29,898 nucleotides of DNA, taken from NCBI GenBank assembly GCA_041742355.1, contig JBGSIV010000253.1, forward strand, positions 1 to 29,898, read 5' to 3'. Under the pieces are notes generated by a model. That model ran no database searches and was not told the DNA's origin. It saw only the letters and a list, made by a program, of their open reading frames with translations. Position 1 is the stretch's first letter. Every line of letters starts with the position of its first letter. Shown piece by piece: positions 1-29,375 of this stretch. This DNA is from Candidatus Zixiibacteriota bacterium. GTDB lineage: Bacteria > Zixibacteria > MSB-5A5 > GN15 > FEB-12. The position numbers were made by a program, and so were the translations under genes.

Positions 1-516
1 AGCTATCGGGCGGCGCTCGACCGCGACTTCGCCGGCCAAAGCCAGGCGGCCCGCGTGTTCATCTGGACGAAGACCCTGGGCGTGATCGCCGAGCACCCGC
101 TCTTCGGGGTGGGGCAGGGAAACTTCCCCGAAGCCTACCGCGAACAGAATGATCCGGCAAGAGGTGAAAATCGGTCGTGGCCGCATGCGCATAACGACGT
201 GCTGAATATTGCCGCACTCTCGGGTATTCCCGGCGCACTCATATACATGGCCATGTGGGTGCTGGTCGCACTCCGCTTCTTTCGAGGGTGGAAAGGACTC
301 CGGCCCGGTTCGACCGGGCGGGCGCTGGTCGGGGCGGCAATGGCCGGGTCGCTCATGTTCGCCCTTTGTTCCGTCACCGAAGCGGCCTTCGCCGATGAAG
401 AGGTGCGGCAGTTCCTCATGTTCGTCTGGGGAGCGGGCCTCTCGGCCACACTGGCAACCCCGGGAGATAATGCCGTACGCGAAAACACGTTGGATGAGCA
501 GGGCGTGGTATGCTGA
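1..516 (+). CDS. O-antigen ligase family protein (Wzy_C/WaaL-like), 5'-truncated by window edge
   Basis: Frame is open from base 1 (SYRAALDRDF...ARVFIW). Contains R-x-x-x-W, HPLFGVGQGNF and HAHNDVLNIAALSGIPG motifs typical of O-antigen ligases, followed by TM helices. Confidence 0.85.
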   Translation, partial: SYRAALDRDFAGQSQAARVFIWTKTLGVIAEHPLFGVGQGNFPEAYREQNDPARGENRSWPHAHNDVLNIAALSGIPGALIYMAMWVLVALRFFRGWKGLRPGSTGRALVGAAMAGSLMFALCSVTEAAFADEEVRQFLMFVWGAGLSATLATPGDNAVRENTLDEQGVVC

Positions 517-2261
517 GCGACAGGACGCCGCGGCTCGTGCCGATCTTTTTCGGCCTCTTGGCGCTCGTAACCCTCCTGCTGTCGGTGCAACTGCCCTTTC
601 TCTACTATTCCGATGACATCGTCTTTCATGCCGCCAAGATCATGGCGGCGCGGGACGGCGACTTCTTCACCGATCCGGTAACCGGGTTCAAGACAATCTA
701 CCCTCCGTTCTACCACATGATCGCCGGAGGGATGGCCGGGTTGTTCGACTTGAGCAGTTTCCAGACCAGCCGCCTCATACAGGTATTCCAGGTTCTCGGG
801 CTCTTCCTCGCCGGGTTCTTCTTCTTCGGCCGGTTCCTCCGATCGCGCGATCAGACCGCAACCGCCGGGCTGCTGCTGATTCTTCTCCTCTATGCGCCTA
901 CCGGGAGGTACTGGCTCCTGGCCAACCCCTTCACCTTTTCGTTCCCGCTGGTACTGACCGGGATGGCCCTGCTGATCGACTGGCGCCGGCGAGGAGCGTT
1001 AGGGCGCGGGTTGGCTGGCGCGCTCCTCTGCGGGATCGGGATCAGCATCTGGTGGTGGAACATGATCCCCGTGATCGGGATGGCAGCCGGGCTCCTGGTT
1101 CTTCCGCGGGCCCAATCGGGCCGCAGCCGGCAGCGCACGGAAGCACTGCTGATCGGCGGAGTTTTAGCCGTGGCGCTCGCAGCGAATCTCTGGCCGCTCT
1201 GGTCGGTGCGCGAAATCCTCCCCGACTACCGCGGTTTCTCCCGCCACGCAGGTTACGTCGCCCAGCACGACCTCCTCAGGAGCCTCGGAGAGTGGGCTGG
1301 CGGCTTCCTCCTTAAAGGAAACGCCCAATTCTTCAAGTACCTCTACCCCGAGGCGTGGTCATCACCCAACAGGCTTGTGGTGATTTACGGCCTGTTCGCC
1401 TCCGTGTACTACTACCTGCTGGTACTGCCGATCAACGGCCTTCTCCTCGTCACCTCCGTTCGGGAAGGTCTCCGGAGAGCCCGTGCCGGCCTCCGGGACG
1501 AGTCGTTCGCAATGCTAGTCGCCGCCTCTGTCACGTTCCTCCTGTCACTCGCGACGCTGTTCCAAACGAACAGCTCGATCACCCGGCGCGTGCAGTTTTA
1601 CTGCTACCTGTTCCTGGTGCCGGCATTCCTGATCTTCTGGTGGGATCGCCTGCACCTGGATCGCAATGCAATACGACGGTGGTCGCTGGCGGTGGTCTGC
1701 GGGGGAGCGATGCTGTACAGCGTCGTGTACCGTTTTGACCTCACCCTGACCGACCCGATCTCCCCCGCGACAGCGGAAGTTGCCGCGTTCGTGAAAGCGC
1801 TGCCCGGCCATGCCGATCGGCGGATATTTGTCACCCAGTACGACAACCATCGTCTTCTCCGGACCGCCCGCTACCGCAGTTTCCTGCTCCGTGGCAACCC
1901 GACCTACTTCCAGCAGGATAAGGTGCGGGCCGATTCGATCGAAACAGCGTACACCCGGATTATCGAAGGTGGCCCGGCGGCCGAGGATCAGCTGCGGGAA
2001 TTTGGAACGGAGTTCGCCATTGTCGGTAAGACCTCCGCAGGGATCAGCCCGGTGATGAACCAGGAGGGATCGGATCCGGCGCGGGAGCACGTGACCGCGT
2101 ACTTCCGCCGGTACGCCGAACCGGTGCTGGAAAACGCCGAATGGGTGGTGTTTCGCCTCGAGTATCCGTTCCGGGACCACTCGGGCGAGCCCGAGGGTCC
2201 GGTCGCCGCAAGCGGCGGCACAAAACAACTTGACAGGTATGCAGCCTCAGGGCTTTATTGA
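510..2261 (+). CDS. Polytopic membrane protein, possibly GT-C-fold glycosyltransferase-like
   Basis: 583 aa with about 10-12 hydrophobic segments. Acidic YSDD pair after the first TM helix, then YPPFYH, and a soluble C-terminal domain. Overlaps the ligase stop. Function is inferred only. Confidence 0.55.
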   Translation: MLSDRTPRLVPIFFGLLALVTLLLSVQLPFLYYSDDIVFHAAKIMAARDGDFFTDPVTGFKTIYPPFYHMIAGGMAGLFDLSSFQTSRLIQVFQVLGLFLAGFFFFGRFLRSRDQTATAGLLLILLLYAPTGRYWLLANPFTFSFPLVLTGMALLIDWRRRGALGRGLAGALLCGIGISIWWWNMIPVIGMAAGLLVLPRAQSGRSRQRTEALLIGGVLAVALAANLWPLWSVREILPDYRGFSRHAGYVAQHDLLRSLGEWAGGFLLKGNAQFFKYLYPEAWSSPNRLVVIYGLFASVYYYLLVLPINGLLLVTSVREGLRRARAGLRDESFAMLVAASVTFLLSLATLFQTNSSITRRVQFYCYLFLVPAFLIFWWDRLHLDRNAIRRWSLAVVCGGAMLYSVVYRFDLTLTDPISPATAEVAAFVKALPGHADRRIFVTQYDNHRLLRTARYRSFLLRGNPTYFQQDKVRADSIETAYTRIIEGGPAAEDQLREFGTEFAIVGKTSAGISPVMNQEGSDPAREHVTAYFRRYAEPVLENAEWVVFRLEYPFRDHSGEPEGPVAASGGTKQLDRYAASGLY

Positions 2262-16254: not shown

Positions 16255-16509
16255 AGGTCAACGATGGTGATGACGGATTTTGCGGACAGGCTGTGGGTCC
16301 GTGGCGACCGCTGTTTGATGATAGTTGGTTGCCACACAAGTGGATATGGCGACGATTTCGTCGCAGGGCCACCAGCCGTTGAAATCATCGCGGAGAACCC
16401 CCGAAAATGTTTGGCCGAACGCGAAGAAGCCTGTTAGCTTTAAGCCGGAGTCGAAAACGCTCTTGCAGCGGAGTATCGAAAGGTCAGACCGGTGTGTGAA
16501 CGCGGTTCT

Positions 16510-19074
16510 GTGAATTGGATTGTTCTTTCGGGTGTGTTGCTTCTGCTGGTGAGCCTGTGGTGTGAGTCGGCCGAAGCCCGCATGAAGTTACGCGAGAGCG
16601 ACGGGCGCGGGCAGAACTACCCAATGGCCACCGCGCGCCCGGCCCACATGCTCGCCGCCCACCGCATCGGCCGTATTGAGCTGGCCGTTACCAACAACGG
16701 AACCTTCGGCGTGGAGTACACCCCCGCGTCGCGCAGCGATTACTTCACCGGCGATCCCGTCTCTCTGTCCTGTCAGTACCCGAAGGGTTCGGGCGTGACC
16801 TACCTGTTCGGCGCCGCTTTCTGGATCGGCGCGGTGGCCGGCCGCGATACTCTCGTTTCGGTCGGCGCGGACGGCTGGCAGACGGTGAACGAGATGTTTC
16901 CCGATGACGAACCTTTCGGACAGATGCAGTACCGTTCGATCAAGGACCCCAATGGTCCGTACGCCGATGAAGCGGTGTCGGAGGAGGACTACATCTCGGT
17001 GTACACCGACACGTTCCCCGGGCTGGTCGACAACGATTTCTTCGGCCGCCTCCACAAACCACTGAATATCGAAGTCCGCGAGGCATCGTACGCCTGGTCC
17101 TACGCCTATGCCGAGGACTTCGTCCTCTTCGACTACCGGATCAGGAATATCGGCAGCCAGCCGCTCCACAAGGTCTACATGGGAATATACGTCGACGACG
17201 AGATCTGCTACGACTGCATGGGAGGCACCAGCGGATACACCGACGACCACAGCGGGTTTCTGCGCACGTATGCCAACCAGTATGGGGCGTGCCAGTTCGA
17301 GGATACCGTGTTCATCGCCTGGCAGGCCGACAACGACGGCGACGCCGATGTGGTGTACTCCGACGGGCGAACCCATCCGACACCCGATGCGGTCGCTACA
17401 CGCATTGTGCGGACCCCCGCCGAGACTCTCGATGTGAGCTTCAACTGGTGGATCGGCAACGGCGACCCGCAACTCGATTTCGGACCGAGAGAACTGCCGT
17501 TCAAGGGGCAATGGGCCGAACCGTTTCGCGATTTCGGCACCGGCGGCCTGGGAACGCCGGAGGGGGATGTGAATAAGTACTATATCCTGCGCAACCGCGA
17601 GTTTGATTACGATCAGATCTTCACCGCCGACATCTCCCCCAATGATACGCTCTGGTTGTATCCGAACCAGGATCTCGCCGCCGATTTTGCCGATGGCTAC
17701 GATACCCGTTACCTGCTGTCGTTCGGGCCGTTTGAGATCGTGCCGGGACAGTCGCTGCCCATCTCCTTCGCCTACCTGGCCGGGCAGAATATCCACCGGG
17801 ATCCCGCCAACGGCGCCAATCTCCCCGATCGTCCGGATCTGTACTACCGCAACCTCGACTTTACCGACCTGTCGCTCAATGCCATGTGGGCCTCGTGGGT
17901 GTACGATAATCCGGGGGTGGATTCCGACGGCGACGGGTACTTCGGAAAGCACCACCTCTGCTCCACCCTGACCCAGCAGGGAGCGCTCAAGGTGGATACG
18001 TTCTGGTACGAGGGGGACGGCATTCCGGATTTCCGCGGCGCCGCTCCTCCCCCGCCCCCCGACTTCCGCCTGGAGTCGCCGTCGGAAGGAACGATCGTGA
18101 TCCGCTTCAACGGCTTGCGCAGCGAAACCACCCGGGACAATTTCTCCCGGTTGCAGGACTTCGAAGGGTACCGTGTCTACCTCGGGCGCGACAACAGGGA
18201 GGAAAGCTTCAGTCTCATCGCGTCGTACGATCGGGAGAACTTCAACAAGTACGTGTGGAACGAGGCGACCGACGACTGGGAGCTGAACGATCCCCCCTTC
18301 ACGCTACCGGAGCTTCGCTGCCTCTACGCCGATTCCTGCGGCGATAATTCCTTTGACCCGCTCTTCTACACACGCTCCCGGCGATTCCAGCATCCCGATT
18401 TCGCCGACTCGCAGTTCTTCTTCGTGCGCCAGGACTTCAATGCCGTCGGGACAGGAGCCGGTGCTATCGAAAAGACCTACCCCGACCAGCCATTCCCTTC
18501 GCACCTCGACCCCGATTCGGCCCGCCCCGATGAGCTGACCCCGCTGGGACATTTGAAGTACTTCGAGTACCAATACACTGCGGAAAACCTGCTGCCGACC
18601 GTGCCGTACTGGGTCAATGTGACCGCCTTCGATTTCGGTTCGCCGGAGTCGGGCCTGGCCTCGCTGGAGACATCGGTGACCGATGGTGCGAAGTCGATCT
18701 ATACAATTCTCGGAAATCCAGCCCAGGGGGATCCCGGCAAGATCACCGTGTACCCGAACCCGTACCGGGCCGATGCCGGGTACAGGGATCTCGGTTTCGA
18801 GGGACGACAGGATGTTGTCCGCCCCGATAACCGCGTGCGCGCGGTGCATTTCGCCAATCTGCCGCCGAAATGTACGATCCGGATATTCACACTCGACGGC
18901 GATCTGGTGCGGGAGATTGTGCACGACGGAGTGCAAGGATCGAGTTCTGCGTCGCACGATGAATGGGATCTGATTACGCGGAACACCCAGCGGGTCGCCA
19001 CCGGGCTGTACTACTGGACGGTTGAAGACGCCGCCGGAAACGTGCAGACAGGCAGGCTGGCAATCATCATGTGA
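16510..19074 (+). CDS. Large secreted protein with FN3-like region and C-terminal sorting-type Ig domain
   Basis: Signal peptide MNWIVLSGVLLLLVSLWCESAEA from GTG 16510 (alternative start 16492). DxDxDG-type Ca-binding motifs, DFEGYRVY. C-terminus VYPNPY...FANLPPKCTIRIFTLDGDLVREI...WDL...ATGLYYW. Confidence 0.8.
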   Translation: MNWIVLSGVLLLLVSLWCESAEARMKLRESDGRGQNYPMATARPAHMLAAHRIGRIELAVTNNGTFGVEYTPASRSDYFTGDPVSLSCQYPKGSGVTYLFGAAFWIGAVAGRDTLVSVGADGWQTVNEMFPDDEPFGQMQYRSIKDPNGPYADEAVSEEDYISVYTDTFPGLVDNDFFGRLHKPLNIEVREASYAWSYAYAEDFVLFDYRIRNIGSQPLHKVYMGIYVDDEICYDCMGGTSGYTDDHSGFLRTYANQYGACQFEDTVFIAWQADNDGDADVVYSDGRTHPTPDAVATRIVRTPAETLDVSFNWWIGNGDPQLDFGPRELPFKGQWAEPFRDFGTGGLGTPEGDVNKYYILRNREFDYDQIFTADISPNDTLWLYPNQDLAADFADGYDTRYLLSFGPFEIVPGQSLPISFAYLAGQNIHRDPANGANLPDRPDLYYRNLDFTDLSLNAMWASWVYDNPGVDSDGDGYFGKHHLCSTLTQQGALKVDTFWYEGDGIPDFRGAAPPPPPDFRLESPSEGTIVIRFNGLRSETTRDNFSRLQDFEGYRVYLGRDNREESFSLIASYDRENFNKYVWNEATDDWELNDPPFTLPELRCLYADSCGDNSFDPLFYTRSRRFQHPDFADSQFFFVRQDFNAVGTGAGAIEKTYPDQPFPSHLDPDSARPDELTPLGHLKYFEYQYTAENLLPTVPYWVNVTAFDFGSPESGLASLETSVTDGAKSIYTILGNPAQGDPGKITVYPNPYRADAGYRDLGFEGRQDVVRPDNRVRAVHFANLPPKCTIRIFTLDGDLVREIVHDGVQGSSSASHDEWDLITRNTQRVATGLYYWTVEDAAGNVQTGRLAIIM

Positions 19075-24723: not shown

Positions 24724-25800
24724 GTGAATATCCTTGATGATATAGAACAGATACGAGCCCATGACCCGGAGAACATGTACAACCGGGTGTTCGATTTTCC
24801 GGAACAGCTGACCGAGGCGATGAAGATCGGCAAGGCCTGGAAGTTCGACCCGAACGCCTTCTCGGGCATCAAGAACATCGTGACGGTCGGCATGGGCGGG
24901 TCGGGAATCGGCGGGGCACTCATGCGCAGCTATATGCGCACGAAGCTGCTCGTGCCGGTCGAGATCTGCCGGACCTACACGCTGCCGGAGTATGTCGACG
25001 ACGAGACGCTGGTGATCGTGTCCTCCTACAGCGGCAACACCGAGGAGACACTCGCTGCGGCCGACGATGCGATCGGGCGCAAGGCGATGATCGCGGCGAT
25101 CGGGACGGGCGGGTTCCTCGAAGAGCTGAGCCGCCTCAACGACATCCCGCTGGCCAAGGTGCCGACGGGCCTTCAGCCGCGCGCGGCGCTGGGCTACCTG
25201 TTCGTGCTCACGATGATCTTCCTGGAGCACATCGGGCAGAACAAGGGGTACTCCAAGGAAATGGAGAAGGTGATCCTCGGCCTGCAGAAGCACCGTGAGA
25301 AGTACATCGAGGACAACTCGACCACGATCAACCCGGCCAAGAACCTGGCGCAGAAGCTGGCGAAGAAGATGGTCGTGATCTACAGCGGACCGACGCTGAC
25401 CGATGCGGTCGCCGACCGCTGGAAGAGCCAGTTCTGCGAGAACGCCAAGACGCTGGCGTGGGCCAACCAGTTCCCGGAGTTCAACCACAACGAGCTGGTC
25501 GGCTGGTCGGAGTCGGTGGAGGAGCACAAGGACCACCTCGCGGTCGTGATCCTGCGCGACCTCGGCGACCACCCGCAGGTGCGCCAGCGGATGAATATCG
25601 TGGGCGAAGTGATCAAGTCGCGCGGGGTGGACGTGACCGACGTGCACACGCGGGGCGAGACACCGCTGGAGCGGATGCTGTCCCTGGTGCAGTTCGGGGA
25701 CTTTGTGTCCTACTACCTCGCGATCCTGAACGACGTGGATCCGACACCGGTGAAGGTGATCGAGACGTTGAAGCGGGCGCTGGCGGAAGCGAAGAAATAG
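24724..25800 (+). CDS. Bifunctional phosphoglucose/phosphomannose isomerase (SIS-domain PGI/PMI)
   Basis: GMGGSGIGG, SSYSGNTEET, QPRAALGY, RWKSQFCENAK, FPEFNHNE, GDFVSYYLA, DPTPV..I..LK. Confidence 0.93.
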   Translation: MNILDDIEQIRAHDPENMYNRVFDFPEQLTEAMKIGKAWKFDPNAFSGIKNIVTVGMGGSGIGGALMRSYMRTKLLVPVEICRTYTLPEYVDDETLVIVSSYSGNTEETLAAADDAIGRKAMIAAIGTGGFLEELSRLNDIPLAKVPTGLQPRAALGYLFVLTMIFLEHIGQNKGYSKEMEKVILGLQKHREKYIEDNSTTINPAKNLAQKLAKKMVVIYSGPTLTDAVADRWKSQFCENAKTLAWANQFPEFNHNELVGWSESVEEHKDHLAVVILRDLGDHPQVRQRMNIVGEVIKSRGVDVTDVHTRGETPLERMLSLVQFGDFVSYYLAILNDVDPTPVKVIETLKRALAEAKK

Positions 25801-25825
25801 GACACGGCAACTCTGGTTTATGCTG

Positions 25826-25856
25826 GCGGGGCTGTTGATGGCCCCGCTTTTCTTTT
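25826..25856 (+). terminator. Intrinsic terminator after PGI/PMI
   Basis: GCGGGGC (25826-25832) / GCCCCGC (25841-25847), followed by TTTTCTTTT. Confidence 0.8.
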
Positions 25857-25888
25857 GGGTTCGTTTGGTGGCCGCAGGGTCACACGCT

Positions 25889-25916
25889 CCGGGGCGGAGG
25901 CAAGCCCCGCCCCTAC
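25889..25916 (-). repeat. GTAG-type REP hairpin
   Basis: Minus strand GTAGGGGCGGGGCTTGCCTCCGCCCCGG. Confidence 0.75.
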
Positions 25917-26141
25917 GCGGGGGAAAGGGCATTGGGTTCGTTTGAGCGCAGCGCGGCCGATGTGGACCTCGGCCGCGCACATGTGCGGCCGCGTACATTC
26001 GCATTTGGATTGGGTTTGTTTGCGCATTTCCATCATTCCTGGTTTACCCTTGTCGTCACCCTTCGACTCCGCTCACAGGCAGCGGCCTGGTTGGGTGACG
26101 GGGGGAGTGGGTTTGTTTGCGCGATGTCGGACTCTCCACGA

Positions 26142-26183
26142 TGTCGGGTTTCTCGGGGCTTCGCCCCTCGGAACCCGACCTAC
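26142..26183 (-). repeat. GTAG-type REP hairpin (long type, copy 1)
   Basis: Minus strand GTAGGTCGGGTTCCGAGGGGCGAAGCCCCGAGAAACCCGACA. Confidence 0.8.
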
Positions 26184-26246
26184 GTCTGGAGTCCGGACCG
26201 GCGGATTGGGTTCGTTTCTGCGTGTGCTCTCTATTCGTTCCTTCTC

Positions 26247-26273
26247 TGTCAGGCTCCAAGGAGCCTGACCTAC
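26247..26273 (-). repeat. GTAG-type REP hairpin (short type, copy 1)
   Basis: Minus strand GTAGGTCAGGCTCCTTGGAGCCTGACA, a perfect 10-bp stem with a TT loop. Confidence 0.8.
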
Positions 26274-26311
26274 GGGTTGGGTTTGTTTCCGCAGTTCCAA
26301 GGTGGTTGCCA

Positions 26312-26353
26312 TGTCGGGTTTCTCGGCGCGTCGCGCCTCGGAACCCGACCTAC
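26312..26353 (-). repeat. GTAG-type REP hairpin (long type, copy 2)
   Basis: Minus strand GTAGGTCGGGTTCCGAGGCGCGACGCGCCGAGAAACCCGACA, 3 differences from copy 1. Confidence 0.8.
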
Positions 26354-26449
26354 GATTGGGTTCGTTTGCGCGGTTTCGGCAGGTGTGGACATCTGCCATT
26401 CACCTAGTGGGTTTGTCTGCGCCGTTTCTCGTTTCTTTGTTCTTCTCGC

Positions 26450-26476
26450 CGTCAGGCCGCAAGCGGCCTGGCCTAC
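26450..26476 (-). repeat. GTAG-type REP hairpin (short type, copy 2)
   Basis: Minus strand GTAGGCCAGGCCGCTTGCGGCCTGACG. Confidence 0.75.
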
Positions 26477-26643
26477 ATCTCCCTATGAATTGGGTTCGTT
26501 TGGTAGTCCCGGCATACGGTAGAGTCAGGCTTGACTGGACCCCGGGCCAAGCCCGGGGTGACAGAAAGGGGAATTGGGTTCGTTTGCGCAGTTTCCCCTG
26601 TGTGTTCATAGCTCCCCGCTGTCTTTCCATGCATGCCTCACAG

Positions 26644-26758
26644 TCCCCTTGCCGACACATTGCCTCTCCCCTTGCCGACACATCGCCTCTCCCCTTGCCG
26701 ACACATTGCCTCTCCCCTTGCCGGCACACAGCCTCTCCCCTTGCCGACACATTGCCTC
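26644..26758. repeat. Tandem repeat, 5 x 23 bp
   Basis: TCCCCTTGCCGACACATTGCCTC at 26644, 26667, 26690, 26713 and 26736. Copies 1, 3 and 5 are identical, copy 2 has 1 change and copy 4 has 3. Confidence 0.95.
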
Positions 26759-27224
26759 ATAGCTTCCGTACACTCTGTCTTATACTTACTGTGGACCATG
26801 GGGCAATCTCCATCAGTTTGCCGGTGATTTTGCGGAAAGGGCTTTGGCCTGCAACAGGGTCGGATTTGGCGACAGATTTCGGGAGGGAAAGGACAACCGC
26901 GACAGTGAGTAGTTCGGATGATTCGGAAATGGAGCCTCTCCGGTCGTTGACGAGGCGGTTTCGGCGAGTTCCATAATGAACCGGAGAAACAGGGACAAAC
27001 GCCCCTTTTTTTGTGCAAGTTTAATCATTGCTGAGGGTTAAGAGTCAGATGCGAACTTCCGAAAGGTAGAGTACCGGCTCTGCCTTTGGAATTTATGTTG
27101 AAGGCGGAGCAGCATTCCCCCTCCTTGAAGGCCGGGCAGGTCTTTGCCGCAAGGGGTTCTTCGAGGCGGGGGCGCCACACTGGCAACAAGATGGTGCAAC
27201 TTGGACATAAACAGGAGTAGTTTC

Positions 27225-29375
27225 ATGAAGCATTGCAAATGGAATGGCATACGCACTGGAATCGGCATGCTGGTCGTTTTCGGTGTGCTGGGGATGCTGT
27301 TGCTGGCGGCAAGTCCGTCGCGGGCGTCGGTCAGCTGGATCGACTTCGCTGTCAACGGCGACACGACGGCGACAAGCATGGTGCAGGGGGATGAGTTGTC
27401 GTGGGGAAGCGATTGCGCGGTCGGGGCGTCGATGTTTTGGGAGATCTGGTACGACGTGGATATGAGCGGCGATATCGATGAGTTGATCGACGCATCGATA
27501 GTGGGCTTCCAGGTTGCGGACGGCGACACGAATTCGGACGGCCCGCCGCCCGATATCGATCCGGTGCCCGATGGGATTTACTGGTCGGCGCCGATGATGC
27601 TGGGAATTCCGGCGGGCGACTATGTTTTCCGGGTGACTGATCTGAGCGATGCTTCGCAATCGTGGCAGACGGTGACGGTGACGGCGCTTCCATCGCCGCC
27701 AAACACCTTTGTCGGCCGGATCGTGCTGCCTGAGACGGAGCCGCCGGATGCGGCGCTGGCGTACCTCTGGGTTGAGGCCGCGTATGACTACGGCGCTCAG
27801 ATGTGGGCGGCGTTTACGGATGATTCCGGGAAGTTCGAGATCAATGTGAGTAATTCCGGCACGGGGCTGATGTTCGATATCGAAACGCCGGATGTTTCGG
27901 GGTTCACGACGCCGGCCCAGAAGCAGTTTGAAGCGAACGGGGTGGTAGATGTCGGGGACTTCATCTACGAGGTTCCGTCGGACAGCGTCTACGGCACGGT
28001 GACCGACGACAACGGCGACCCAATTCCGTATTGCTACGTGTACGCGTACGTGGAGGGGGGCGGCCAGAACAAGGACGTGGAAGCATCGGATGGTGAGTAT
28101 GTCATGTATTTCACTCCGTCGGAAGCCGGCACATGGCAGCTGGGCGTGAGCACAGACATGCTGATTCCGAACTATGTGGTACCGCAGGGGGTCGAGATAA
28201 CGGTTGGCGGCGGGACAGGGATCGAGCAGAATCTTGTGTGCCCGATAGCGGACCAGGAGATCTACGTGCTGGTTACCGAGAACGGGGGGAATCCCGAGCA
28301 CAGCTACCTGTTCGATGCCAACTGCCCGGCAAGCGGATATTTCACGCGCACGGTCACGGACACGGGCAGCGCCAACGTGGGAGTACTCCATACTTCGTCG
28401 GCGTGCGGCAGCGGCTGGTGGGTCAACGTACAGACATGGGATTCCGCTTACCAGATTCCCCCCGGGTATTTCGTCGAGGATCCGCCGTCAGGGTTGTACT
28501 ATGCCGGTGACACGGTGTACCTGAATTTCATTGAAGGCGCAACTGTGCGGGACACGATCAAGGTGGATCCGGGGGATTCGATTCCCTATATGAGTTCAGT
28601 CTGGATTAACCTCAGTCAGGGCGGGTACGTGCCCTACTACGGCCATCCGGACGAGTCCGGTGTGTATCAGATCACGGCTGCGGTTGGAACCTACACGCTG
28701 ACGGCATCGGCGAATGGGTACTATTCGGTACCGACGTATCGTCAGTTAACGCTGGCGGCCGATACGACCGGCAATTTGGGGTTCACGTTGAACCGCGCCC
28801 ACTGCCGCATCAGCGGCCAATTGCAGGGGGTGCCGCTGCCGTTGTCGGGGCATATCTACGTGGTGGTGGCGAGCACGACGATCGCGCTGGCGGCAACCGT
28901 GGACACGATGACCGGGACTTTCGGAGTCGATGTGTTCGACGCCAACTGGACGCTGACGCCGCCGAGCATCGACGGGTACAGCCTGCCGGACACGATGCAG
29001 TTCGCGATCGGGGAGATCCCGGACACGTCGAGGACGGCGAATTTCTCTTATTCGCCGGTACTGGATGTCGACGGCGACGGGCCGGAGGGTCTGCCGGGAG
29101 ATTTCCGGCTGAACCAGAATCGGCCGAACCCGTTCAATCCGACGACCCTGATCGAGTACGATGTGCCACGCAGCGCACCGGTAACGGTGGCGGTGTACAA
29201 CCTCCTGGGCCAGCATGTGAAGACGCTAGTCGATGAGGTGAAGGGGGCCGGGACGCACACGGTCGAGTGGAATGGGACGGATGGCTCGGGGCATGCGGTG
29301 GCGAGCGGGATTTATTTGTACCGCTTAAATGCAGACGGATTCACGCAGACGAAGAAGATGCTGCTGATGAAGTAG
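27225..29375 (+). CDS. Secreted multi-beta-sandwich protein (carboxypeptidase-regulatory-like repeats) with C-terminal FlgD-Ig/T9SS type A-like domain
   Basis: ATG 27225 with AGGAG RBS and a signal peptide ending ASPSRA. Repeats such as VYGTVTDDNGDPIP and GTYTLTASANGY. C-terminus LPGDFRLNQNRPNPFNPTT.I.Y....YNLLGQ.VKTL...WNGTD..G..VASGIYLYRL...TKKMLLMK. Confidence 0.88.
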   Translation: MKHCKWNGIRTGIGMLVVFGVLGMLLLAASPSRASVSWIDFAVNGDTTATSMVQGDELSWGSDCAVGASMFWEIWYDVDMSGDIDELIDASIVGFQVADGDTNSDGPPPDIDPVPDGIYWSAPMMLGIPAGDYVFRVTDLSDASQSWQTVTVTALPSPPNTFVGRIVLPETEPPDAALAYLWVEAAYDYGAQMWAAFTDDSGKFEINVSNSGTGLMFDIETPDVSGFTTPAQKQFEANGVVDVGDFIYEVPSDSVYGTVTDDNGDPIPYCYVYAYVEGGGQNKDVEASDGEYVMYFTPSEAGTWQLGVSTDMLIPNYVVPQGVEITVGGGTGIEQNLVCPIADQEIYVLVTENGGNPEHSYLFDANCPASGYFTRTVTDTGSANVGVLHTSSACGSGWWVNVQTWDSAYQIPPGYFVEDPPSGLYYAGDTVYLNFIEGATVRDTIKVDPGDSIPYMSSVWINLSQGGYVPYYGHPDESGVYQITAAVGTYTLTASANGYYSVPTYRQLTLAADTTGNLGFTLNRAHCRISGQLQGVPLPLSGHIYVVVASTTIALAATVDTMTGTFGVDVFDANWTLTPPSIDGYSLPDTMQFAIGEIPDTSRTANFSYSPVLDVDGDGPEGLPGDFRLNQNRPNPFNPTTLIEYDVPRSAPVTVAVYNLLGQHVKTLVDEVKGAGTHTVEWNGTDGSGHAVASGIYLYRLNADGFTQTKKMLLMK

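Follow-up and report, generated by a model that had tools for sequence, protein, structure and literature searches.

A 13-bp motif alternating with REP hairpins in a Zixibacteria genome: probably a gene-less copy of a small, apparently undescribed insertion element

The stretch of DNA analyzed here (the window) comprises 29,898 nucleotides of a contig from a Candidatus Zixiibacteriota bacterium (source genome G000). Within it, a host phosphoglucose/phosphomannose isomerase gene with SIS and bact-PGI_C domains (24724..25800, plus strand) is followed by an intrinsic-terminator-like hairpin (25825..25848, plus strand); a hairpin of this kind is also found 3′ of the orthologous isomerase gene in two congeners, G059 and G043. 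An array at 25854..26585, to which the isomerase gene is a convergent neighbor, has this gene and its terminator (24724-25848) on one side and a gene for a secreted protein on the other. An earlier note on this DNA had described ten co-oriented copies of a motif here, at spacings of 77, 78, 97, 99, 71, 79, 51, 83 and 84 bp. Our search for TGGGTTYGTYT recovered all ten, starting on the plus strand at 25856, 25933, 26011, 26108, 26207, 26278, 26357, 26408, 26491 and 26575, and the recomputed spacings were identical. Allowing one mismatch, no eleventh copy was found anywhere in the window; in 100 shuffles of the window the mean number of matches was 1.48 and the maximum six, ten never being reached (0/100). 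The three ORFs crossing the array gave no match to Pfam, and positions 25000-27500 gave none to Rfam. Two other ORFs of the window, of 860 aa (16492-19074, plus strand) and 583 aa (510-2261, plus strand), are also without a Pfam match.

The array reads along the minus strand, as do all the features that follow. It is preceded at 26778..26834 by a sequence that also stands upstream of both STGP genes of the genome (STGP being a label coined here for an unannotated family, described below). We refer to this sequence as the left end, or leader; its core, CAAACTGATGGAGATTG, lies at 26820-26804. By eye the left end looks promoter-like, and a strict sigma-70 scan found no site in it. Five tandem copies of a 23-bp repeat (26644..26758) separate it from the first motif and occupy the place of the gene in gene-bearing copies; diverged relatives of this tandem repeat come after other copies of the left end. 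Motif copy 1 (AAACGAACCCAAT, 26573..26585) is the closest to the left end, and the junction would lie directly after its last base. The same motif search placed copies 2 to 10 at 26489..26501, 26406..26418 (a degenerate copy), 26355..26367, 26276..26288, 26205..26217, 26106..26118, 26009..26021, 25931..25943 and 25854..25866. The tenth, presumably the right end of the element, abuts the host terminator, which forms part of the insertion flank and lies outside the element.

The nine hairpins between the motifs are those that the earlier note had listed: five of the GTAG type, two of the GTCCACA type and two of the GTCACCC type, all on the minus strand. Unit 1 (26539..26563) holds a hairpin of the GTCACCCCGG (GTCACCC) type which, with its tail, is similar to the 5′ flank of a GIY-YIG gene on contig C113. 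The GTAG REPs are found in units 2 (GTAGGCCAGGCCGC type, 26450..26476, with 13 similar units in other arrays), 4 (GTAGGTCGGGTT type, 26312..26353), 5 (GTAGGTCAGGCTCC type, 26247..26273), 6 (26142..26183, of a family shared with unit 4) and 9 (GTAGGGGCGGGGC type, 25889..25916, the whole unit being 95% identical to one on contig C179). GTCCACA hairpins occupy units 3 (26378..26397), whose family also flanks a Y1 transposase locus (L005), and 8 (25951..25978), while unit 7 (26054..26100) holds a CGTC/GTCACCC-type hairpin. In two units the GTAG starts 1-2 nt after the 13-mer.

The exact motif occurs 148 times in the 4.37-Mb genome, compared to 3.4 times expected from a fifth-order Markov model. 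A weight matrix yielded 187 copies in 63 clusters, none of mixed orientation (0/63) and 40 with at least two copies. The window array is one of 40 in the genome, and the motif recurs in other phyla. The unit hairpins belong to about a dozen families, which are the genome's ordinary REP-type repeats; the GTAG and CGTC types are those of PMC3733652 and PMC6006769. REPs near motifs are nearly all co-oriented (53:0 and 30:0 in two examples), and in most families a large minority of copies lies within 300 nt of a motif, a zone that makes up 1.1% of the genome. Two families flank Y1 transposase genes (L001 and L005), and most copies lie far from any motif. The genome has five Y1 and four GIY-YIG matches; as seen in unit 1, the 5′ flank of one GIY-YIG gene is similar to a REP family together with its tail, and the motif was not found in the flanks of the five Y1 loci. 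Co-oriented clusters of mixed REP families also occur without any motif (C100:2373, C121:28400-29100 and C228:2100-3200 of G000). On contigs C3, C55, C158, C179 and C224 of this genome, a word that ends in ACTTA(C) comes within ~40 nt after some of the last motifs; it is seen past the motif in other genomes too and may be an additional right-end feature.

The earlier note had considered an undescribed system that captures or catalogues REP ends. Its first half, an undescribed modular system, holds up; the dedicated catalogue is not supported. A fixed site that takes up end sequences from other selfish DNA (REP-RAYT, REP-GIY-YIG) and so serves as memory or decoy would agree with the share and common orientation of the REPs close to motifs, with the unit type that includes the natural flank of a GIY-YIG gene, and with the presence, inside copies of the element in other phyla, of short repeats native to the respective genomes. 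We nevertheless consider it very unlikely. The REP families lie mostly far from the motif, hairpin-free units are common in arrays elsewhere and no effector gene is linked. Motif decay along the arrays was looked for and showed no polarity. Neither are hairpins enriched past the junction in gene-bearing copies, where structured DNA follows the motif in 6/36 cases vs. 8/36 controls, a result on which we also dropped hairpin-directed targeting beyond the motif.

A peptide-pattern search found two STGP genes in the source genome, on contigs C113 and C185, and both run straight into motif arrays, with AAACGAACCCAA as the motif on the coding strand. The family signature is NAxxSTGPxTxxGK..NAxKHG..E..WRxxR..E..RYE, and its profile matched 34,934 clusters (50% identity) at E<=1e-10. 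No significant match to Pfam, NCBIfam (cut-off E<=0.001 for both) or PHROGs was obtained for the two STGP proteins and 95 family members, nor did a sequence search of the PDB give one; ESM Atlas matches were to unnamed and SEC-C-bearing clusters only. The predicted structure is all-helical, with no sheet (pLDDT 84); Foldseek returned no match at E<=0.001 and another fold comparison only generic helical-hairpin matches. In 140 representatives, an Asn, a His, two Arg and a Glu are conserved at 98-100%, and a Tyr at 91% (His in 7%). The gene can be multi-copy, with about 10 loci in each of two genomes. One match was found in plasmid records and none in 50,697 phage records; among loci with an STGP gene on viral contigs (n=14), the motif lies 78-79 nt upstream of the STGP codons in L065, L066 and L068. 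A conserved partner gene was considered and dropped: of 100 naively called ORFs in the flanks, 85 were searched, and no neighbor turned up repeatedly. The NEPN/KRTQ peptide repeats mentioned in the earlier note are real: motif-derived peptides were found in 28/120 family proteins, vs. 0.9 expected from shuffled tails.

The helical-hairpin architecture of the predicted structure is compatible with a non-catalytic STGP, a small-terminase-like DNA-binding oligomer that would mark the motif while RAYT or GIY-YIG nucleases, or host repair, cut and join in trans; the arrays would remain derivatives of the element. Two of the 95 members match phrog_9231, 'terminase small subunit', weakly (E 0.0018), weak Foldseek rows point to the G20c small terminase (E 1.2-1.3), the motif is found in either orientation (see below), and the Y1 (five) and GIY-YIG (four) matches lie in the same genome. 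The terminase matches are, however, below any useful threshold, and no terminase, large or small, and no integrase recurs among the 85 flanking ORFs. The lack of matches in phage records and the hairpin-free units of arrays elsewhere also speak against this reading, and the many invariant polar residues would suggest catalysis. We regard a purely binding role as unlikely.

Within the phylum, the motif lies downstream of the gene on the coding strand in 37 of the 42 STGP loci whose gene our script located, compared to 1, 1 and 3 at control positions, and four of the five misses have a degenerate motif copy at the downstream position. We also counted all of 79 loci from Planctomycetota, Acidobacteriota, Alphaproteobacteria and other phyla: the motif was downstream on the same strand in 38, downstream and inverted in 15, upstream and inverted in 4, and upstream on the same strand in none. 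Copies of the gene were compared for their boundaries, in a set that left out some loci missed by the script's anchors. Among related copies at different sites, L016, L018, L043 and L046 (89-92% identity) have homology that starts 75-120 nt upstream of the STGP codons and ends at motif position +13/14; it also ends at +13/14 in L082 and L083. Several other pairs remain homologous for a further 30-110 nt beyond the motif, and the copies of one genome for ~500 nt.

The loci in which the motif and its extension stand inverted just past the gene (L118, L126, L131, L141, L142, L117, L127, L140, L154, L093, L099, L100 and L122) are alphaproteobacterial, planctomycete and acidobacterial; the Bradyrhizobium-type genes among them are short, at about 116-128 aa, and perhaps preceded by a second ORF. 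The copies of a ~2.2-kb version in one planctomycete genome (L107, L115, L124, L128, L132, L133, L135) hold 2-3 internal motifs at 42-nt distances and end sharply on the right about 500 nt later, in flanks that differ among the copies. In one Phycisphaerales genome, the tails of eleven copies (L080-L102) contain short repeats native to that genome (AATCTGAAAT-like and CTCCGCGCCTCTGCGGTG-like), among which the motif recurs; these repeats may be linked to four-helix-bundle and GxxExxY genes.

The left end that precedes both STGP genes is also found 130-570 nt upstream of 26/40 arrays, or of 24/32 if only arrays with full flanks are counted, and always in a single orientation, the other three configurations being absent. 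It has 51 matches in the genome vs. 0 in the reversed genome. On contig C111 the left end is followed by the first codons of a truncated STGP gene, then by REPs and an array, and in other genomes their own left end precedes the arrays likewise. The gene has the motif at its 3′ end, and its left end also heads the arrays. For ten copies of the left end there is no motif within 1.2 kb, and some copies lead other genes. Left ends at C27:933, C65:3364, C216:20483 and C252:754 of G000 (minus strand) have neither motif nor REP, and an apparent antisense 3′ end of a host gene lies close behind; those at C111:2708, C120:1134 and C282:269 lead small unrelated ORFs. Target-site duplication was dropped as a feature, since in 26 elements, whose left boundary is uncertain, the mean shared word was 4.7 vs. 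4.6 after permutation (p=0.25). The left-end consensus and the motif bear no resemblance by eye that would make them terminal inverted repeats. A replication-strand bias was likewise discarded (17/33 by contig GC skew, a weak proxy), and an assembly artefact was rejected because the units differ from one another and other genomes have the same architecture.

At the motif end, the neighboring host gene is convergent in 26/33 cases (p=0.001, with naive gene calls). This bias, the strict polarity from left end to array and the breakpoint fixed after the motif (see below) are all compatible with a non-coding RNA, for which the left end would be a promoter and the array transcript would be cut at the motif into 50-100 nt RNAs, each with a hairpin, an A-rich linker and the motif. 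Such RNAs would have STGP as their RNA-binding partner and could, for instance, reach into the convergent genes as antisense RNAs. We find this quite unlikely, given the lack of an Rfam match and of a strict sigma-70 site, the widely varying unit lengths, the unstructured units found elsewhere and the wholly different arrays of congeners at the same site. An inverted motif, moreover, could not serve equally as an RNA signal.

To locate where units are exchanged, we compared the DNA on either side of pairs of motifs: 242 pairs had only upstream DNA in common, 86 only downstream DNA and 28 both. The upstream-only pairs are alike through position +12 and at background by +14, while in the downstream-only pairs identity climbs from +13; for array motifs the identity switch falls in the unconstrained zone between +12 and +14. 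The next neighbor was conserved in 4/70 comparisons of similar units, none of 124 units has an exact duplicate, and 7/9 units of the window have relatives of at least 70% identity in other arrays. In genome G147, two motif-bounded units form a near-identical tandem duplication, and in the arrays of other genomes many units are free of hairpins. Units do turn over at the motif: they recur across arrays and are reassorted, with a breakpoint at motif position 12-13, just after the motif. Two further ideas were abandoned. One was capture of unique host DNA as unit tails (9/162 tails match motif-distant DNA, and these, among the matches listed, look like REP hairpins), and the other retro-copying, as RVT_1 was not found in the 93.8% complete genome.

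The arrays might also have grown neutrally, by slippage and homologous recombination, with the motif as the mere conserved end of an old element. That the units are 70-95% diverged with no exact duplicates, and that tandem duplications are present, would be in keeping with such growth. Thirteen bases are short for host recombination, however, and neutral growth sits poorly with the sharp breakpoint at +12/+13, with a motif that is conserved while adjacent tails drift, and with a motif variant that follows the resident gene. We hold it to be highly improbable.

The STGP gene was detected in 22 of the 24 genomes with at least two exact 13-mers vs. 30 of 126 others, and within the order alone in 22 of 24 motif-bearing genomes vs. 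26 of 59 others. It should be noted that related genomes are not independent in either comparison, that two of the 22 gene matches are N-terminal only and that the exact 13-mer pattern misses variants. Two genomes, G049 and G095, have 5-8 motifs with no gene detected. Among congeners, the number and the variant of the motif follow the gene: in this comparison G000 has 144 motifs and two genes, most of the 39 motifs of G043 are of the variant found beside the STGP gene of that genome, and G059 has one motif and no gene. The site behind the orthologous isomerase gene is empty in G059 and holds a different two-unit array, with its own left end, in G043. These congeners yielded no exact empty-site junction because they are too diverged; a comparison in Bradyrhizobium found the element missing upstream of an orthologous gene in most relatives, again with no exact junction.

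We propose that the array is a non-autonomous copy of an undescribed small insertion element, and that STGP cuts and rejoins DNA just after the motif; we judge this to be probable. The feature is real, larger than first reported and apparently undescribed. What had been missed earlier is that the motif probably serves as the end site of an element with a gene of its own, from which the array derives as a non-autonomous form. The element would consist of the left end, the STGP gene and the right-end motif AAACGAACCCAAT. The STGP protein would nick and rejoin DNA directly after the motif, and motif-ended segments would be copied, duplicated and reinserted beside other copies of the motif, so that any segment between two direct motifs could act as a cassette. 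The reaction would be a nick-and-join without target duplication. The REP hairpins would be passengers: in a genome rich in REPs they would enter the element, and motif-bounded units would then take them along.

Catalysis by the STGP protein itself is suggested by its residue conservation, with a candidate active site in the Tyr of RYE, which is nearly invariant, and in the invariant His, Arg and Glu residues. There is perhaps an even chance that STGP represents a new class of ~170 aa, all-helical nicking-joining enzymes that recognize a 13-bp site. They would mobilize their own gene and, across the chromosome, assemble and rearrange arrays of DNA units bounded by the site, in a manner resembling integrons with unrelated chemistry. 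Several observations count against the proposed element. No known catalytic fold was found in STGP, whose predicted structure is all-helical, and the downstream inverted motif in 15/79 loci does not fit a strictly polar end. The carry-over past the motif, the motifs of G049 and G095 without a gene, the left ends without motifs and the REP mosaics without motifs also weigh against it.

A family of ~35,000 clusters without Pfam, NCBIfam, PHROG or PDB assignment is now linked to one particular DNA site with a prediction of where it is cut, which turns the function of a 'hypothetical protein' into a question for one experiment. If our reading is true, STGP would be among the largest unannotated bacterial families. 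As the catalyst, it would be one of the smallest transposases or recombinases, with no relation to the classes known so far, and would also account for a widespread kind of polar, mosaic intergenic DNA and for the NEPN/QTNP tails of many hypothetical ORFs; as a binding factor only, it would define a new variant of IS/REP-type selfish DNA.

A literature search, with most subscription papers outside its reach, found no description of the element. It works partly as an IS with its MITEs, partly as a REPtron with its REPs and partly as integron cassettes; for each of REP/BIME, CRISPR, integrons, TIGR, HUH and DDE elements, one or more of the defining features that we tested are missing. The earlier exclusion of CRISPR, integrons and BIMEs is supported. 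By the generally known features of insertion sequences with their non-autonomous MITEs, and of IS91-type one-ended transposition, it resembles an IS in its compact order of left end, gene and right end, in its multi-copy stand-alone gene, and in its internally deleted copies, absence of target duplication and variable flanking carry-over. Unlike an IS, it has its right end reiterated up to ten times with exchangeable units, and the site is inverted in some subfamilies; STGP is also without an HUH, DDE or DEDD match. Whereas HUH elements (IS200/IS605, IS91/Helitron) have the H-U-H, STGP has an invariant His and a conserved Tyr but no H-U-H and no sheet, and in contrast to DDE insertion sequences and MITEs there is no target-site duplication signal (26 elements, p=0.25). 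For serine and tyrosine recombinases there was no Pfam or NCBIfam match at E<=0.001 and no clear fold match, with residues 1-64 barely covered, and for small terminases there were weak matches only.

In integrons, attC sites with paired R''/R' boxes delimit gene cassettes, and CALINs lack IntI by definition. The element is alike in outline, with direct repeats of one site delimiting reassorted units, but its 13-mer has no attC structure (GTTRRRY occurs only twice in the array and 0 times on the element strand), its units are non-coding and 40-200 nt long, and it forms dozens of dispersed arrays. Nothing exceeded the TIGR02249 cut-off for IntI in the incomplete (93.8%) genome. CRISPR arrays have repeats of 25-36 nt and unique spacers of about the same length, whereas the repeat here is 13 nt long and the spacers (38-86 nt) come from recurring families; cas1 was not found in the 93.8% complete genome. 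TIGR-Tas systems are described in PMC12045711 as having two alternating repeats of 8-12 nt and spacers of 9-12 nt. They share short repeats with variable spacers beside a small protein gene, but the array has a single repeat, a spacing of 51-99 nt and spacers of 38-86 nt; STGP gave a generic coiled-coil match to TasH (Z 7.5, 69 residues, 4% identity).

With the REPtrons of REP/BIME/RAYT systems (PMC6006769, PMC3733652), the element has in common a single small gene and a short repeat cognate to it, copies of which spread through the intergenic DNA of the genome. A hairpin of 20-40 nt with a GTAG-type 5′ tag is found in 5/9 of the unit hairpins, but not in the 13-mer itself. The cognate site is instead a non-palindromic 13-mer in direct copies rather than inverted dimers, the REPs near motifs lack the inverted-pair arrangement of BIMEs (53:0 and 30:0 co-oriented), and STGP has no Y1_Tnp match (Pfam, 95 members, E<=0.001) and an all-helical predicted structure. 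Nor are the ends hairpins with guide tetranucleotides, as in the IS200/IS605 elements described in PMC6006769. REPtrons, according to PMC6006769 and PMC3733652, do not transpose as a unit. Here the arrays share the gene's left end, and it is apparently the element as a whole that moves. Kinship to IS110 was dropped after hhalign gave a probability of 0.15% between STGP and one IS110-like protein of the source genome. At L001, a gene at 60-1166 that, to judge from its sequence, encodes an IS110-like transposase lies directly beside the Y1 transposase gene (1330-1872), which is flanked by CCACAGC-type REPs.
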